Shown here piece by piece: positions 1 to 60,603 of a DNA stretch of 64,000 nt. The translations under genes were made by a program, and so were the position numbers. Source of the stretch: Pseudomonadales bacterium (GTDB taxonomy: Bacteria > Pseudomonadota > Gammaproteobacteria > Pseudomonadales > UBA3067); NCBI GenBank assembly GCA_040235475.1, contig JBECKY010000031.1, positions 3,293-67,292 of the forward strand, written 5' to 3'. The notes under the pieces are model-generated. The model was given only the letters and a program-made list of their open reading frames with translations, was not told the DNA's origin and did not search any database. Each line of letters opens with the position of its first letter. The stretch's first letter is position 1.

Positions 1-600
1 CATGGCAACACCTGCTACCAGAATCAGCAAAGGCAGAGAAATACGATCACGAAAATCAGGCATACGTGTATGCAGCCATATGAAGGCTGTTGCCAAGGCT
101 GTTATTGCAAACGGTATTAAAAAATAAAATAACAGAATATGAGTGGGAGTAAAATCGGTATCACGAATAGTAACTTGATGCCAGGCCGCATCAGCCTCGG
201 TAAAAAGCGAAAAGAGAATGGCAAAAGATATTCCAAATGCAAGTAACATCGCCAACATCACCATGTAGACCCGCAACTCTTTTTGCGGCGACATTGCTTC
301 AACGGTATGCCTTGTAAACCAAAGATATGCGTTTGATGCAATACCTATAACCATGATAACAGGCACCTGAATATAAAATAAGGTCATCCAGTACTTCTGA
401 AACTCAGGCTCAAAATAATCAAGACCCACAGTAAAGGCGTATTTGTTGAGGTACAGCCGGTAAGCGCCAAAAATAAGCGCTACAGCCAAAACTATTCCAC
501 CCGTTACCCAAAGAGGAAGTTTATATGAAGTAGCTGAATCCGTCTTTGAGACGGATACTCCGCCAAGGGACGCTAAGTTTTTATTGAGTACGCTAGACAT
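1..600 (-). CDS. pmoC: Copper membrane monooxygenase subunit C (PmoC/AmoC family), N-terminal 200 codons; the gene continues beyond the left edge
   Basis: Truncated ORF, absent from the supplied track. My minus-strand translation from the ATG at 598-600 stays open for 200 codons to base 1: MSSVLNKNLASLGG..GLDYFEPEFQKYWMTLFY..AYLWFTRH..SPQKELRVY..LFTEADAAWHQVTIRDTDFTPTHILLFYF..WLHTRMPDFRDRISLPLLILVAGVAM. These blocks match the PmoC/AmoC signatures I know ([63 protein letters not shown]). GGAGG lies 5 nt upstream of the ATG. Confidence 0.85.
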   Translation of the reverse strand, partial: MSSVLNKNLASLGGVSVSKTDSATSYKLPLWVTGGIVLAVALIFGAYRLYLNKYAFTVGLDYFEPEFQKYWMTLFYIQVPVIMVIGIASNAYLWFTRHTVEAMSPQKELRVYMVMLAMLLAFGISFAILFSLFTEADAAWHQVTIRDTDFTPTHILLFYFLIPFAITALATAFIWLHTRMPDFRDRISLPLLILVAGVAM

Positions 601-914
601 TGGAACCTCCATATCACAGACTTAATAATAAACAGTATTATTAGCTTAAAACGGCTCACTCTATTCCTTAGTCAACATTAAGCAAGCACGACTTAGTAGA
701 ACAGTAGACTAAAAATGCAGCAAATAATACTGTCGAATCACGAAAATAGAGTTATTTTTTAGTTTAAGAAGAAATATAAAATACTGTTTTAACATCATTA
801 AGCTATTTTAATTCGCCAAAACCTTATTAGCTCTTAAGTCTTTGCAATTTCAATAAGTTGCAGTCTTCAGCAGATATTGGCTTCACCTTACTGAAAAACA
901 TCAAAAGTTAAAAT

Positions 915-2081: not shown

Positions 2082-2999
2082 TCAAGCAGAAGCAGTTAAA
2101 AAAAATTGCATGATATCGGCAATGGTTTGCGCCTCTCCCTCAAGGTGCAAATGGTGTCGGCCAGAAATTTTCTCTACTGTCAGTGCTCGATGAACCTTTA
2201 CTCGCTCATCCAGATCCATCACTTGCAGAGGGATACCATTTTCTGCAATGACCAAGCAGGTAGGAGCGCTAATATTGGCAATAAAAGCTTTGGTTTCAGT
2301 ATCAGATAAACGGATCGGGGAAGGATGGCGTAATCTTGGGTCTGAGCGCCACGTCCAACCGCCATCAACTTGTTTAACGCCGCGCTGACAAAGAATTCTG
2401 GCCGCCGCTTCGTTCACCACCGTCCCACCCTTCATACGCTTTTGGACAATGGTGTCAAAGTCCTCGTAAAAGACGACGCGATCGGGATTGTAAGCCTGAT
2501 TTTTTTGAATCGCTTGCCTTAACTGCTCAATGCCTTGATGGGCAGAACGTGATGGCGGGCCAAAACCTTCTATTAACACCGCACGCTCTATTCTCTCGGG
2601 GAAAGTACCGGCAAGCAAAGTTGACACATTAGCACCAAGGGAATGACCAAGAATAGAAAATGTATCCCAACCTAGCGCATTAGTCGCAGCAATTGCATCA
2701 GCAACATAATCGGTAACATAATAATGACTTCCCAGTGGCCGGTGTTCACTCAGGCCGTGGCCAGCCATATCAAGGGCGCAGATGTGGTAATCGCTTAATA
2801 GCGGCGCCAGTAAATCAAACGTATTGGCATTATCCAACCAGCCGTGCAAGGCTAAAATTCGCTGGCCGTCTTCAGGCCCCCAGAGCTTGGCTGCCAGTTC
2901 CAGGCCATTAGCATCAAGGATAATTTCATCGTACCGCATGTCGATAGCGTCTCTTTTATTTTTTGATCTTTTATGCAACTTAAGCAAATCAGCCAACAC
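2082..2999 (-). CDS. Alpha/beta-fold hydrolase, paralog 2 of a tandem pair
   Basis: 305-aa ORF with HGWLDNANTFD, GHSLGAN and GRHHLHLE, colinear with 915-1847. The GTG at 2999 gives the longest ORF. The ATG at 2939 (MRYDEIILD..) aligns better with the paralog's N-terminus. Confidence 0.8.
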   Translation of the reverse strand: MLADLLKLHKRSKNKRDAIDMRYDEIILDANGLELAAKLWGPEDGQRILALHGWLDNANTFDLLAPLLSDYHICALDMAGHGLSEHRPLGSHYYVTDYVADAIAATNALGWDTFSILGHSLGANVSTLLAGTFPERIERAVLIEGFGPPSRSAHQGIEQLRQAIQKNQAYNPDRVVFYEDFDTIVQKRMKGGTVVNEAAARILCQRGVKQVDGGWTWRSDPRLRHPSPIRLSDTETKAFIANISAPTCLVIAENGIPLQVMDLDERVKVHRALTVEKISGRHHLHLEGEAQTIADIMQFFLTASA

Positions 3000-50973: not shown

Positions 50974-51936
50974 ATGACTAATTACGACGTATTTAATGGT
51001 GACGCCGATGGTATCTGTGCTCTGATTCAACTACGGCTTTCCAAACCTGTTGAATCCCAACTAATCACCGGAGTTAAAAGGGATATTCAACTGCTGGAAA
51101 AAATTTCGGCTGAAAAAAATGACCATATTACGGTTTTGGATATTTCGCTGGATAAAAACCGCAAGGCTTTATTAGATTGTTTAGATAAGGGCGCTCAGGT
51201 GAGCTGGTTCGATCATCATTTTGCGGGTGAAATCCCCACGGCAAGTAACCTGAAAACCTATATTGATACTGATGCCAATATTTGCACCAGCCTGCTGGTT
51301 GACCAATATTTAAAAGGTCAATACAAAGCCTGGGCGGTAACCGCTGCCTTTGGTGATAATTTAAAAGATAGTGCGATTCATGCCGCCAAAAATTTAAACC
51401 TTGCTAAAGACCAATTAGATTTATTGGAAAAGCTCGGTACCTATATTAACTACAATGGTTATGGTTCAGATATTAGTGAGCTGCATTTCTCGCCAACGCA
51501 GTTATATTCACTGCTTCTTCCTTATGCTAACCCATTGGATTTTATTATTAGCGACACTACGGTCTTTAAACAGCTTGAATCCGGCTATAAAGAAGACCTA
51601 AACCATGCGCATAATATTCAAGCTGAATTCAGCTCAGAAACAGCCGCGGCTTTTATTCTACCCAATGAACCTTGGGCGCGCCGTGTTAGCGGTGTCTTTA
51701 GCAACGACCTTTCTCAGAACAATCCAGATCGTGCCCACGCGGTATTAACCTTAAAAGCAAATAACAACTATTTAGTAAGTGTACGTGCCCCGTTAAGCAA
51801 TAAAACCGGTGCTGACGAATTGTGCAGACAATACCCGACAGGCGGTGGCCGAAAAGCTGCAGCAGGCATAAATGAACTTCCTGCTCATCAACTTGATGCA
51901 TTTATCAATTCATTTATGATTCACTTCTCCTGGTGA
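50974..51936 (+). CDS. DHH/DHHA1-family phosphoesterase (NrnA-like fold, substrate unknown)
   Basis: 320 aa. It has motif I FNGDADGICA, motif III WFDHHFAG and a C-terminal DHHA1-like GGGRKAAAG (Arg where the canonical GGGH has His). Starts 24 nt after the PPTase stop on the same strand. Confidence 0.65.
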   Translation: MTNYDVFNGDADGICALIQLRLSKPVESQLITGVKRDIQLLEKISAEKNDHITVLDISLDKNRKALLDCLDKGAQVSWFDHHFAGEIPTASNLKTYIDTDANICTSLLVDQYLKGQYKAWAVTAAFGDNLKDSAIHAAKNLNLAKDQLDLLEKLGTYINYNGYGSDISELHFSPTQLYSLLLPYANPLDFIISDTTVFKQLESGYKEDLNHAHNIQAEFSSETAAAFILPNEPWARRVSGVFSNDLSQNNPDRAHAVLTLKANNNYLVSVRAPLSNKTGADELCRQYPTGGGRKAAAGINELPAHQLDAFINSFMIHFSW

Positions 51937-52214
51937 TCAGCGTCACATATTTTTATATGCCTGTGATGCATGACAAGCGCAAAACTTGCTTGTGATCGAT
52001 TGCCCAGATCTCATTCTTTTCCCATGTAATTTATTCTGCCCGTGGTAAATTTGGGCGGCAGAACACACCCATTATCAACCAATCATCTAACCTATACTTC
52101 AAGGTAAATTTTAAATAACAAAGCACCACATGTTTAAACTTACCTTTCAGACTGGGAGTGCCAGCAAGGACTTTAATGCATGGATCAATCTGTTTAGCCA
52201 ATGGCGGAACTGCA

Positions 52215-54470
52215 ATGTTTGATTTCCATCACGATCTAATAAAGTGTAATATTTATTACTGGTGTTTAATAATCAGTCTGTCGCTATTAACAGCGTGCGG
52301 AGGCTCATCCAGTAGTAGCGATAACATTGATAATATCCTGTCTAAAGATTCAAGTCAGGACTCGTCAATATTGCTCTCAGGTCGTGTAGTTAAAGGTGTA
52401 ATTACCAATGCCAAGGTTTCAATATACTCAGTGAACGATGGCGTTATCAGCAATACCCAGATTGCCAGAACCATCACTAATGTAAACGGCACTTTTACTA
52501 TTGTTACTCCGCAAGAAGCGCTAACAAATATTTTATACCTTGAAGCCACGCCCTCTAATGACCCTCAGTTGCCAACCTTAATGACCTGCGATTCAATAAA
52601 TGGCTGCGGCACACGCAACAATGTTAAAATTGACTTTGGCGATACTTTTCGTGTTGATGATAACTTTAAACTTCGTAGTTTTGTTGAGTACAATAACACC
52701 CGTACAAAATTATCCACGCAGTTTACGCCACTGATGCACATGGCTGTGGCTTACGCAGAAGCACTTCCCGGCGGACTGACCAAAGCCAATATTATGGGCG
52801 CTCTAGAATATTTATCAGAAGTTTTTTTATTCACCCAAAGCATTAATCAGCTGGAAACTGTAGATTTAACGGTTTTATCTGAAATGAACGACGCCAATGA
52901 TGAAGAACTTGTAGCTGCAATTCTCGCCTCCACATTTATGAACATTGGACAAGCGCCAAACTACACTCCTGTTGAAACCATACTTAAAAACATTACCGCA
53001 CAACATGGTGTTTTGGCCAACAACGACACACAAAACCCTGACAGCCTTTCTCTGCTGCATATAGCGAACCTGGCTATAGCCAATATACCAAGCGATGTAG
53101 CCAACAGAACTAATATTAGCAATCAATTAAATCAAATAGCGTTAAACGCATCGGACACAGTTAGCAGTGTCGAACTTGACGTGGTCGCAGGGTCAAACGG
53201 AAAAGTTATTTCATCCTCCCACTCTTTTGAATGCCTGGCCTCGTGTCAATACAATATAACCAAAAGCGACACGGTTACATTAAATGCCATAGCCGACAGC
53301 GGTTTTGAATTCACTTCCTGGAATAATAGCTGTCCCGGATTACAAGACCAAAGCCATCCTATTTGCGAATTCACCTTGCTGGAATCAGCAACTGTACAAG
53401 CAACATTTTCACCCATCACAAACACTACACACAACCTTGTGCTTACCATTGTCGGCCAAGGCAGCGTTACACTGGATAATGAAAATCTTAGCTGCAACAA
53501 TAACTGCGCATTCATTCTGGATGACGCTGCATTAATTAAGCTCAGTGCTACAGCTGCATCAGGCAGCAGCTTACAGTCATGGACACTGGATCAACAGCCT
53601 GTGTGTGGAATTAATACAAGCTGCGACGTTATGATGTCTGGAGATCTCAATCTCAAAATCACTTTCGTTGAAAACACTACTCCATCTGTTGAGTATGTCA
53701 ACTTAACGATAAAGGCTGACGGAGAAGGTGTAGTAAAAGATTCAGCCCTTAACCTCGCATGTCAACAAACAAGCTGTTTATTTCAAATTAAAAAAGGCAC
53801 AACAATTAATTTTTCAGCAACGCCTTTAAATAGCAATACCCATAAGTTTTCAGGCTGGCAAGGCTTATGCTCTGGAGGCGGTAATTGTATACGCACAATG
53901 GACTCAGATGGCTTATTGACAGCTATTTTTAGCGCCCTTCCCCAGCAAACACTGACCGTAAACATTTCCGGCGGCGGAAGTGTAAACGATGCCGCATTAA
54001 ATTTCTCATGCAATCAGGCAAGCTGCAGCACTAATCTGGATTTTGCCACACAGGTGAATCTAAGCGCCACGGCAAATGCAGGCTACGCATTTGATCACTG
54101 GGAAAATGACTGTACTAATTTCACAAACGATTGCTCAGTAAATATGGATTCGAATCATACGGTCACAGCGGTTTTTAAGTCTACAACTGCGTCAACAACC
54201 GTTAGCTGGACAGCACCCACACAAAGAGAAAGCGGTAATCCATTACCTGTCTCAGAGATTAAAAAATACATTATCTATTATGGTACTAAAAGCGGCGTAT
54301 ACATAGACGCCATTGAAGTTGGCTTGCCTGATAACAGCAATACAATTCCAACAGAGCTAAGCATAGATGGATTAGATAAAGGCCTGGTTTATTATTTTGC
54401 AGGTATGACAGTAGATTCGAACAACTTATCAAGCAAGCTTTCTAATGAAGTGACCAGGCTTATTCAATAA
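52215..54470 (+). CDS. Large surface lipoprotein with four cysteine-paired repeats (InlB B-repeat-like) and a C-terminal FN3-like domain
   Basis: The start is set at the ATG at 52215 (MFDFHHDLIKCNIYYWCLIISLSLLTACGG, lipobox LTAC). The track ORF begins at 52158. Four repeats of about 85 aa each have the pattern G.G.V...(L.C)..C........L.A.A..G..F..W...C....C...M.....(T)A.F. The tail VSWTAPTQRESGNPL..I..Y.IYYG is FN3-like. Confidence 0.7.
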   Translation: MFDFHHDLIKCNIYYWCLIISLSLLTACGGSSSSSDNIDNILSKDSSQDSSILLSGRVVKGVITNAKVSIYSVNDGVISNTQIARTITNVNGTFTIVTPQEALTNILYLEATPSNDPQLPTLMTCDSINGCGTRNNVKIDFGDTFRVDDNFKLRSFVEYNNTRTKLSTQFTPLMHMAVAYAEALPGGLTKANIMGALEYLSEVFLFTQSINQLETVDLTVLSEMNDANDEELVAAILASTFMNIGQAPNYTPVETILKNITAQHGVLANNDTQNPDSLSLLHIANLAIANIPSDVANRTNISNQLNQIALNASDTVSSVELDVVAGSNGKVISSSHSFECLASCQYNITKSDTVTLNAIADSGFEFTSWNNSCPGLQDQSHPICEFTLLESATVQATFSPITNTTHNLVLTIVGQGSVTLDNENLSCNNNCAFILDDAALIKLSATAASGSSLQSWTLDQQPVCGINTSCDVMMSGDLNLKITFVENTTPSVEYVNLTIKADGEGVVKDSALNLACQQTSCLFQIKKGTTINFSATPLNSNTHKFSGWQGLCSGGGNCIRTMDSDGLLTAIFSALPQQTLTVNISGGGSVNDAALNFSCNQASCSTNLDFATQVNLSATANAGYAFDHWENDCTNFTNDCSVNMDSNHTVTAVFKSTTASTTVSWTAPTQRESGNPLPVSEIKKYIIYYGTKSGVYIDAIEVGLPDNSNTIPTELSIDGLDKGLVYYFAGMTVDSNNLSSKLSNEVTRLIQ

Positions 54471-56898: not shown

Positions 56899-58221
56899 TT
56901 ACAAAATATCCGTATATCTGAAAGAAAGTACTCCAGACAAGGCTTCAAACTCTGCGCTCGGAAAATCCGAGAACTGGTTTTCGTGAACTAAGTCTATATC
57001 AACTATTAAACGTTTACTTAAACGCCAGTGTAACTGCAGTGCAGTTAAGTAGTCTCTTGAAATTTCACCTTGCTCAAATAATTTTTCTATATAATGCTCT
57101 TTAAAAGTAAAGCGCATTCCAGGATTTAATTGCCTGGATATTGACAATCGCCCGGCAATTTCATCATTATTCGCCGAAGTTATTTGCCTAAAATGCTCTT
57201 GTTCGATTTTCGCAAACTGGATTTTTATATTATTAACGTGAACTTTTTGCTCATAATCAACGCTGGAGTTTTTAGTTTTACTGATCGCATTAATTGTGTC
57301 TAAAGCCAGAGCAGAGCCTATCGCCGTTTCCGAAGCCTGGAGATCCTGCACATTTGATGACAACAATTGATTTAATTGACTGATATTATCTTCATAACCG
57401 ACACTATATTTTGCCCGAATTCGGCTGCCTGCCCACGGCGTCCAGTTAATAGTAGCTTTAAGACTAAGGGTTTCGTTATCTGAATCAACACTATCAATGC
57501 TGATCCTTTCTTCGCCAATATTAAAATCAACATCTACCGAACGTAAGTTTTTGGCATAGCCTAAAAAAAACTCTTCGGTTCTATAACCCGGGGTAACAGT
57601 AGCGTCAGGTACTGTTTCATCATTCTCTATGTCTTCATAAACATGATTAACAGAGAGTTGGCCCGCTACCATTTTATGCTGCCAGGAAACCTTACCGGAT
57701 AAACGTTTGCTGTCACTCAGCTCTTCCTGCTCAATATATTTATAAGAAGCTGAAAGCAAAACGCTATCTACTGAGCTTAACTTTATCCTCCATTCAGGTT
57801 CAGTGTTGTAGCTGACTTGATCAGAAAGGTTGTCAGCATTGGCCGCTTGACGCGAATCCACCAACACTGTGTTTGCAGTAACATTGTTATTCCAGGCAAA
57901 GGTAGTAGGTAACACGCTGAAATTCATAAACAACACACCATTAGCAGATACTTCCTCAGAATTATCAAACAGTTCTTTTTCTCTACTAAAATAACTTAGC
58001 TTTGCATCTCCTCCAGCTTCTATTAACGAGCCCTTCTTTAGACCTGAAATCCCTGTATCAAGACTATACTCTTGACCTGATTCCGAATCAGCCCTTTTCA
58101 CAATATTATCACTCGTGGTTAACGAAGTACCCACAAAGTAATGCAATGCCTCAGCATAAACCGAGTTCATAGGAAATATTACCAGCAATAAAAAAAAAAG
58201 CTGACGTTTAAAAAAATTCAT
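56899..58221 (-). CDS. Outer-membrane beta-barrel protein of the EPS locus
   Basis: 440 aa with a signal peptide (LLLVIFPMNSVYA), then long alternating-polarity strands ending ..GVLSFRYTDIL. Positioned between the kinase-like gene and the deacetylase, as in PEP-CTERM EPS clusters. Confidence 0.6.
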   Translation of the reverse strand: MNFFKRQLFFLLLVIFPMNSVYAEALHYFVGTSLTTSDNIVKRADSESGQEYSLDTGISGLKKGSLIEAGGDAKLSYFSREKELFDNSEEVSANGVLFMNFSVLPTTFAWNNNVTANTVLVDSRQAANADNLSDQVSYNTEPEWRIKLSSVDSVLLSASYKYIEQEELSDSKRLSGKVSWQHKMVAGQLSVNHVYEDIENDETVPDATVTPGYRTEEFFLGYAKNLRSVDVDFNIGEERISIDSVDSDNETLSLKATINWTPWAGSRIRAKYSVGYEDNISQLNQLLSSNVQDLQASETAIGSALALDTINAISKTKNSSVDYEQKVHVNNIKIQFAKIEQEHFRQITSANNDEIAGRLSISRQLNPGMRFTFKEHYIEKLFEQGEISRDYLTALQLHWRLSKRLIVDIDLVHENQFSDFPSAEFEALSGVLSFRYTDIL

Positions 58222-59076: not shown

Positions 59077-60603
59077 TTAAATCACCTCCATGATTTTCAA
59101 AGCAGCAAAGCCAAAATAAACAATTAAAAACAAACAAAAAACACCAGCAATGACAGAAAAATCTTTTTTCATTGTTAACGCTTCCGCAGGATTTGTTACT
59201 TTTGGTATGCTGGTTAAGACCGGAGCATCAACAAACTCACTTAATGAATACCTATAACGAATACGTTGATCAAACATGATCATGGCATAAATCAAGCCTA
59301 AAGGAATTATCATTCCCGCCAACGGCGCGGCTAACCAAAAATGCATAACGCTTGCACCAGAGGGCTTTTGCGGAATAGTTGCGGGACTGATAATCTTGAA
59401 GTTTGCACCCTTTTGATCAATCTCAATATTCATCGACACGCGAGCATTCTCTCTTCTCATCAACAAATCCTGATAAATGTCTTTGTTAACGTTATAATCT
59501 CGAGTCAGCTCAGACAGTTCGGCTTCATTTTCATGTATTCGTTCTGAGCGAGACTTTTGCTCAGCCAATAAATCTTCCAGCCTTCGAATGCGAACTTTTT
59601 GTGCCTCGATACTGGATTCAACCTTGGAAATTTCACTTCTTATTTGCTGCAATAAAATATTGTCAGTGTTGCTGATATTGCTACGTCCAGAGGCTTGGGG
59701 AGACTCCACACCACTTTCCACAGCGGCCATCTGTTTTTCAAGTTCACCGATCTGAACCTTAATGCTGACAATATCAGGATAGGAATCATGATAACTTAAA
59801 CGTAGATTATCCAGAGTTTTCTCTAATTCTATAACCCTTTTCTTAAGGTTGTTTTTCAATTCCTGGACTCTACTTTCAGTGCTTTCACCATCCAATTGTT
59901 GTTTTAGCGATTTCCTTTTAAACTGATTTTCAGAGAGCTCTATCCGAGCAGCTTCCAACTGTTGCTCCAAATTAGAAATCCGGGATCCTACACCGCCAAT
60001 AGTACCTTCAAATTTTTCAGTTTTAAAAACCCTAAGCCTTTCTTCAGATGCTTTTAATTTCGAATGGTAATTATTAACCTGATCACTTATAAAATCAAAA
60101 GCCTCACGGCTTTTTTGCCGACTCTCTTCTTGGTGTAACAAAATAAATGCTTCAACCAGGTTTTGAGTGACCTCGAAAGCTCGACGAGGGTCTGTATCTT
60201 CATAGGAAAAAAGCAACGAATTTTTTCCGAGTCCAGATACCCTGGTATTATGCTTTACCTGCTTAATAAACTTTTCCACATTGCTTGAATCAATTACACC
60301 TTCAACGTTCCAGTCTGTTTTGTTAACAACATCAAGCAGCACTTCCCTGACTAAAATCTTTTCTTTAGCATCTCGAACCCAGTCTTTAGAACTCGCCAGT
60401 ACCGCACGTTCTTTCATTAACGGCGTCATTACCGAGTCTGTCTCTAAGAGTAAAGTAGCTGAAGAAATATATTTTTTGGGCTTTAATGCACCTGCAGTCA
60501 AAACGAGAACAACAGTTAAAAGAAACACAAAGGAAAGCTGCTTTTTATATCGCCATGCTTCTCTTACGGTGATAACAAACTGCTCATAAGGAGGTATATT
60601 CAA
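59077..60603 (-). CDS. Polysaccharide chain-length determinant (Wzz/PCP family, EpsF-like)
   Basis: 508 aa with an N-terminal transmembrane helix, a long coiled-coil periplasmic region, FKIISPATIPQKPSG, and a C-terminal transmembrane helix. Confidence 0.8.
   Translation of the reverse strand: MNIPPYEQFVITVREAWRYKKQLSFVFLLTVVLVLTAGALKPKKYISSATLLLETDSVMTPLMKERAVLASSKDWVRDAKEKILVREVLLDVVNKTDWNVEGVIDSSNVEKFIKQVKHNTRVSGLGKNSLLFSYEDTDPRRAFEVTQNLVEAFILLHQEESRQKSREAFDFISDQVNNYHSKLKASEERLRVFKTEKFEGTIGGVGSRISNLEQQLEAARIELSENQFKRKSLKQQLDGESTESRVQELKNNLKKRVIELEKTLDNLRLSYHDSYPDIVSIKVQIGELEKQMAAVESGVESPQASGRSNISNTDNILLQQIRSEISKVESSIEAQKVRIRRLEDLLAEQKSRSERIHENEAELSELTRDYNVNKDIYQDLLMRRENARVSMNIEIDQKGANFKIISPATIPQKPSGASVMHFWLAAPLAGMIIPLGLIYAMIMFDQRIRYRYSLSEFVDAPVLTSIPKVTNPAEALTMKKDFSVIAGVFCLFLIVYFGFAALKIMEVI

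Follow-up and report, generated by a model that had tools for sequence, protein, structure and literature searches.

A lone pmoC-family gene of the hydrocarbon-type copper membrane monooxygenase radiation in a conserved neighborhood of an uncultured Pseudomonadales lineage

Subunit C is now thought to carry the catalytic copper sites of the methane and ammonia monooxygenases. Its gene, pmoC, usually stands at the head of xmoCAB operons, and stand-alone copies of pmoC and amoC were already recognized in the first methanotroph and nitrifier genomes. For pmoC, such copies are described from methanotrophs and from phages (PMC7674155, PMC11931723). The lone pmoC paralogs of Methylocaldum are divergent, lie in conserved contexts, and have conserved CuD residues (PMC11931723). 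In Nitrosomonas europaea, the divergent singleton amoC3, which is 67.5% identical to amoC1/2, is expressed as cells recover from starvation and under heat or oxidative stress, and has been proposed to encode a replacement subunit (PMC13058606). Copper membrane monooxygenases (CuMMOs) of unknown or hydrocarbon substrate are found in Solimonas and Porticoccaceae (PMC6215863; 10.1101/2022.11.07.515388). In the literature searched, pmoC paralogs are discussed only for methanotrophs, nitrifiers, and phages.

The gene described here, a member of the pmoC/amoC family (CuMMO subunit C), lies at the left edge of the window, that is, the whole stretch of 64,000 nucleotides that was analyzed. Codons 1–200 of 266 occupy positions 1–600 of the minus strand, and the assignment draws on the open frame, the Pfam AmoC family, the PmoC chains of the PDB, and an intact 266-residue ortholog, P0001. 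The frame runs uninterrupted from the ATG at 600–598 for exactly 200 codons to base 1, just as the original prediction had stated, and its translation contains the predicted peptide FTEADAAWHQVTIRDTDFTPTH, with D137, H141, and H154 encoded at 192–190, 180–178, and 141–139. A Shine-Dalgarno sequence, GGAGG, is read directly at 606–610 on the minus strand, 5 nt before the ATG. It lies within an intergenic spacer of 314 nt (601–914, minus strand) that has 30.3% GC, compared with 43.7% for the whole window, and is the presumed site of the gene's own promoter; the GGAGG and the AT-rich upstream region had both been predicted and are both present. The gene is missing from the ORF track because ORFs running off the source end go unlisted, and it is truncation by the window edge, not decay, that cuts it.

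A consensus scan of the spacer gave no minus-strand sigma-70 match, and no signal exceeded the shuffle expectation. In the contig L080, described below, consensus scans for promoters and terminators in the gap between pmoC and the DUF4892 gene that follows it likewise stayed at the level of shuffled sequence, and the terminator-like matches of these scans fell only within the coding region. Alignment of the upstream regions across the lone clade showed no common motif except the Shine-Dalgarno sequence. GGAG is the sole upstream element in common with the relatives at 72% and 63% identity, and the spacer sequence is conserved only within the species. Neither the clade alignment nor the consensus scan found a sigma-factor motif conserved upstream of the lone pmoC. 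When the window was scanned for tRNA genes and Rfam families, nothing useful for taxonomy or regulation emerged.

Membership of the subunit-C family is secure, and it follows from the profile match, the alignment to PDB chains, the metal sites, and the structural model of P0001. The profile search proposed in the original prediction is significant, the 200-aa fragment matching Pfam AmoC (PF04896) with a score of 138 bits (cutoff 26.7; E 4.5e-40). The same fragment matches all solved PmoC/AmoC chains in the PDB with E 2e-34 to 1e-24, and residues 31–254 of P0001 align to a solved PmoC with E 4e-57. The AlphaFold model of full-length P0001 has a pLDDT of 79.7 and a pTM of 0.76. In a Foldseek comparison of this model with the PDB, the top 20 matches are all PmoC/AmoC, with target-normalized TM-scores of 0.67–0.79 and E down to 5e-11, while the first match after the PmoC/AmoC chains has an E of 0.7.

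The Asp137-x3-His141-x12-His154 metal site (CuC-type) is encoded at 139–192 on the minus strand. Its D137, H141, and H154 correspond column for column to D129, H133, and H146 of the Methylocystis sp. M PmoC chain 3rfr_C, the residues that bind the variable metal site in that structure. The predicted intact triad thus agrees with the alignment to solved PmoC chains, and it is invariant in 105 of 105 relatives. A second site, N208-x3-H212-x13-H226, lies beyond the window edge within NEWGHTFFYAEELFAAPIH of P0001, which aligns with NEWGHTFWFMEELFVAPLH (NEWGH...APLH) of the solved PmoCs; this block contains the second (CuD) site of recent cryo-EM work. From the ortholog, we infer that the window strain would have the N208/H212/H226 site too. 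Across the 105 PmoCs, the only departures from invariance among the six metal ligands are a single N to D change and the gap of the truncated window copy.

The lone PmoC is only 41–45% identical to the solved PmoCs, and full-length P0001 scores below both NCBIfam equivalog cutoffs (216.6 vs. 280.6, and 246.5 vs. 319; models TIGR03078 and NF041641), which bears out the predicted divergence from methanotroph PmoC and nitrifier AmoC. The four operon-encoded paralogs of the species score 212–220 and 242–252 bits on the same models, matching the lone copy. Judged by these profiles, the whole radiation falls outside the pMMO/AMO equivalogs, and the lone PmoC does not belong to the canonical subunits of the methane or ammonia enzymes. 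The solved PmoCs have FFTEQDG(A/T)WH and HIIEFY where the window gene has FTEADAAWH and HILLFY. The unusual flanking motifs noted in the original prediction are therefore real differences from the canonical enzymes but are not peculiar to this copy, being common to the five paralogs of the species and to the 105 relatives. As alignment signatures, EADAAWH and HILLFY mark the hydrocarbon-type group and not the lone copy. The nearest sequences outside the clade (47–56% identity) belong to hydrocarbon-type CuMMO groups of Beta- and Gammaproteobacteria. The suggested link to the poorly characterized hydrocarbon-type CuMMOs is upheld. To our knowledge, no substrate has been demonstrated for the members of the radiation near the window gene.

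The sequence to the left of base 1 was read from the conspecific contig DATCSI010000258.1 (L080) of the metagenome-assembled genome (MAG) GCA_036568545.1. This contig has ~98% nucleotide identity to the window across the shared 1 kb, spacer included, and the two are therefore from the same species. P0001, which it encodes, is intact, 266 aa long, and 99% identical to the window fragment. Codon 266 is followed by TAA, a gap of 271 nt, a DUF4892/OmpA-like gene, folE on the opposite strand, aroC, and an MFS transporter gene. The gene order gpsA, His-phosphatase, TraB/GumN, two alpha/beta-hydrolases, pmoC, DUF4892, folE, and aroC is also found in relatives at 72% (L081) and 63% (L082, L083, and L085) protein identity, and pmoA and pmoB are absent after the lone pmoC in L080–L083 and L085. 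In a six-frame search of the 64-kb window, HMMs for PmoA, PmoB, the fourth operon gene, CopC, and DUF4892 gave zero matches. The window gene is a lone pmoC and not the head of an operon.

The DUF4892 protein that follows the lone pmoC (L080 11073–12074) has 333 aa and a weak C-terminal OmpA match. It was considered as a dedicated PmoC partner and rejected, as it adjoins aroC in Ketobacter-like genomes that have no pmoC there. In these genomes, DUF4892 (L087 7738–8598 and L088 7811–8659), a methyltransferase gene, aroC, and the MFS gene stand together without pmoC, and of the other 88 pmoC genes examined (92 copies in all), none has DUF4892 behind it. DUF4892 is therefore an ancestral neighbor of aroC and probably not a partner of PmoC, and pmoC was likely inserted at this junction long ago. 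On the other side of the gene, the nearest upstream neighbors are a tandem pair of alpha/beta-hydrolase genes (915–1847 and 2082–2999, minus strand, both Pfam Abhydrolase_1), given here as context. The pair is kept upstream of the lone pmoC in L080, L081, L082, and all relatives with this synteny. Separately, a carboxylesterase gene (L089 8907–10445) follows the pmoCAB operon of the species. CuMMO genes and ester hydrolysis may be linked, as in a sub-terminal oxidation route.

By its AroC sequence, the organism falls in a lineage of uncultured Pseudomonadales. Members of its own clade are 86–90% identical and all others at most 81%; the nearest named organisms, at ~78–80%, are Ketobacter, Ketobacteraceae, and strain HdN1. 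The remaining window is of a housekeeping kind and includes leuBCD, asd, fimV, truA, trpBA, folC, purF, a type II secretion operon, and polysaccharide genes. Three ORFs of 320–508 aa without a Pfam match (50974–51936, plus strand; 56899–58221 and 59077–60603, minus strand) lie in the polysaccharide-biosynthesis region, adjoined by sugar transferase, polysaccharide deacetylase, and epimerase genes. A 770-aa protein encoded at 52158–54470 (plus strand) contains divergent InlB B-repeat (Flg_new_2) domains, which are unusual in a gammaproteobacterial core region.

Several histories of the lone gene can be weighed against this context. The original prediction had allowed either the first gene of a C-A-B operon continuing leftwards or a lone pmoC. 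An operon start would accord with the 36 of 92 related pmoC copies that are operon-linked, and the window ends inside the gene, its left side not being directly readable. However, the search for pmoA and pmoB directly downstream, run on L080, met the DUF4892/OmpA-like gene instead, and the stop codon, the 271-nt spacer, and the identical order through DUF4892, folE, and aroC in the 72% and 63% relatives make an operon head very improbable; of the two options, it is the lone pmoC that stands. Slightly less credible still is a pseudogene left from a lost operon, the decaying orphan that the original prediction had named as its refutation. The gene is lone and no promoter consensus was found, but dN/dS in the lone clade is 0.07–0.12 with synonymous sites near saturation, the frame is intact at 264–266 aa in every fully sequenced clade member, the six ligands are kept, and the Shine-Dalgarno sequence is strong. 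The lone clade is under strong purifying selection, and a dN/dS of ~0.1 excludes decay. No more plausible than the pseudogene is a recently acquired mobile or phage-derived auxiliary pmoC. Phages do carry stand-alone pmoC (PMC7674155), and the gene sits at a synteny junction, with Ketobacter-like relatives having DUF4892 and aroC without pmoC. On the contrary, tblastn against 50,697 phage records gave no match, the neighbors are housekeeping genes, no integrase or transposase lies nearby, and the GC content of 42.3%, the GC3, and the synonymous codon usage are native and inside the host range. A raw codon-frequency correlation (0.48) hinted at a foreign origin, and this hint was rejected, the synonymous-only score being within the host range. 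The same position is kept in relatives down to 63% identity, and the acquisition is therefore old. A likely ancient insertion would fit with the alternative-subunit reading given below.

The age of the lone clade is also reflected in its phylogeny. Among 105 related PmoCs (47 lone, 40 operon-linked, and 18 other), a single clade with a bootstrap of 200/200 unites the window gene with its orthologs, in a tree made by neighbor-joining only and with the canonical reference sequences left out. The sequences nearest to it from outside are 52–55% identical, and an old separate clade of this kind is therefore not a recent spare duplicate. Its usual sister, in 150 of 200 replicates, is P0021 (L094 2836–3612), which is also a lone gene in a different context, between pterin-4a-carbinolamine dehydratase and fructosamine-kinase-like genes. 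The lone state may be older than the split between the window clade and P0021. The lone copy has 49–54% identity to the four operon paralogs of the species, which are 51–69% identical among themselves. Operon-linked PmoCs have 75 columns with a conservation of 95% or more, and the lone clade fully keeps 71 of them. It shows one consistent change, P198 to V/I, at a position nearly invariant in operon copies, and four invariant residues are peculiar to it: L51, F126, L156, and A199.

According to the original prediction, this one gene would define the physiology of the organism. That claim fails, as a lone C subunit is no enzyme; the physiology is instead defined by two complete CuMMO loci, which the conspecific MAG GCA_036568545.1 carries on other contigs. 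In L089, P0032 heads a pmoC-pmoA-pmoB operon beside nqr genes. In L093, downstream of clpB, a tandem of three pmoC genes that begins with P0117 is followed by pmoA, pmoB, and a gene of ~210 aa; this pmoC-C-C-A-B arrangement is repeated on the independent Logan contigs L091 and L092. The species therefore has at least five pmoC genes, one lone, one in pmoC-A-B, and three in pmoC-C-C-A-B. These operons are known from the conspecific MAG and not from a closed genome of the window strain, and the binning of MAGs can err. The contigs with the CuMMO loci have 43.8–44.1% GC, close to the 43.7% of the window. Tetranucleotide correlation of the operon contigs with the window is 0.955–0.975, compared with 0.975 between the window halves and at most 0.87 for other CuMMO loci. 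Their synonymous codon scores are 0.04–0.14, compared with 0.035–0.18 for the housekeeping genes of the window and -0.09 for foreign pmoC controls. Given this match in composition and codon usage, mis-binning of L089 and L093 is unlikely.

High numbers of pmoC are also seen in related MAGs, where the counts are lower bounds: seven in NORP74, six in UBA3067, and five each in NORP120, UBA5859, CTOTU26803, and the window species. The loci surveyed (L093 2758–9190, L091 8001–14433, L045 10001–13006, L057 9878–13361, and L001–L079 generally) include C-C-C-A-B operons and triplets without pmoA or pmoB. Within the literature searched, the presence of five to seven or more pmoC genes per MAG in these Gammaproteobacteria appears to be little described. 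At 21 loci, pmoB is followed by a gene of ~200–225 aa without a Pfam match (e.g., L038 13067–13681 and L093 8558–9190), and a CopC-domain gene sometimes comes after it (e.g., L016 13563–13964). The ~200–225-aa gene may encode an uncharacterized fourth CuMMO component of this radiation.

On balance, the lone PmoC is probably an independently transcribed alternative or replacement gamma subunit for the operon-encoded enzymes. The gene would have its own transcript, starting in the AT-rich spacer of 314 nt, and its product would insert in the membrane and take the gamma position of an alpha3-beta3-gamma3 CuMMO, whose PmoA and PmoB would come from the operons elsewhere in the genome. The outcome would be an enzyme variant or a replacement subunit for another condition or substrate, the latter presumably a short or cyclic hydrocarbon. 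The conserved core, the metal ligands, the low dN/dS, the partner PmoA and PmoB of the species, and the described precedents count in favor of this reading. Counted against it are the 49–54% identity to the operon copies, which is further than amoC3 stands from amoC1/2 (67.5%), the age and separateness of the lone clade, the change of P198 to V/I, and the scans of the flanking regions, in which no promoter, terminator, or regulatory motif was found.

The main competing account is more tentative and holds that the protein works without PmoA and PmoB. It could be a stand-alone PmoC-like copper membrane protein, such as a small copper-dependent oxidase or a protein of copper handling or sensing, and, with the same reservation, a PmoA/PmoB-independent version might have been retained as a separate family member at a fixed core-genome position. 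The deep, monophyletic lone clade, whose sister P0021 is lone too in another context, its low identity to the operon copies, and its clade-specific residues together with the change at P198 speak for such a role. Moreover, 42 of the 92 related pmoC genes surveyed are lone, in many contexts that include tandem triplets without A or B, and subunit C contains both of the metal sites believed to make up the active site. The Methylocaldum authors also propose non-methane functions for stand-alone paralogs (PMC11931723). On the other hand, no PmoC is known to work alone, 71 of 75 conserved positions of the enzyme-bound PmoCs are retained, the species encodes PmoA and PmoB, and none of the genomes encountered had only lone copies. 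A broader and rather unlikely extension is that the five PmoCs with two PmoA/PmoB pairs make up CuMMO isoenzymes of differing hydrocarbon range or, more radically, that the lone PmoCs act alone. In such a modular reading, C is an exchangeable catalytic module, of which related MAGs have up to seven or more paralogs.

To the extra stand-alone C genes, the window gene adds a well-defined case outside the methanotrophs and nitrifiers, from an old and strongly conserved lone lineage. With two operons and five C paralogs, the species is a candidate system for the swapping of C subunits, in relation to either substrate range or enzyme repair. The locus also carries a warning for annotation, since an isolated pmoC match shows neither a monooxygenase locus nor methane or ammonia oxidation.

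Compared with the known systems, the lone pmoC joins a known kind, the stand-alone pmoC/amoC genes, from a different CuMMO radiation and host group. Like amoC3 of N. europaea, it is a C gene apart from the complete operons of the same genome and keeps the metal ligands. The amoC3 gene has its own transcription, and for the window gene this is proposed. The two also differ in that the window copy is only 49–54% identical to its paralogs and in that the host is a heterotrophic-looking member of Pseudomonadales with hydrocarbon-type CuMMOs, not a nitrifier. The stand-alone pmoC genes of methanotrophs (pmoC3 of Methylococcus capsulatus Bath and types 2–5 of Methylocaldum) resemble it in being lone, in having a conserved, type-specific context, and in conserving CuD. 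In contrast to them, the window gene belongs to another radiation at 41–45% identity, has EADAAWHQ and HIxLFY instead of EQDG(A/T)WH and HIIEFY, and lies between the tandem hydrolase pair and DUF4892-folE-aroC. The phage auxiliary pmoC/amoC genes are similar in that pmoC is present without A or B (PMC7674155), but the window gene has no phage match, a native composition, and a core chromosomal context. The closest relatives outside the clade are the pHMO/xmoCAB systems of Solimonas, Aquabacterium, Ca. Macondimonas, and Porticoccaceae B045, and the operons of the species are of the same type; those systems, however, have C, A, and B together in complete operons, and the window gene is a C by itself.
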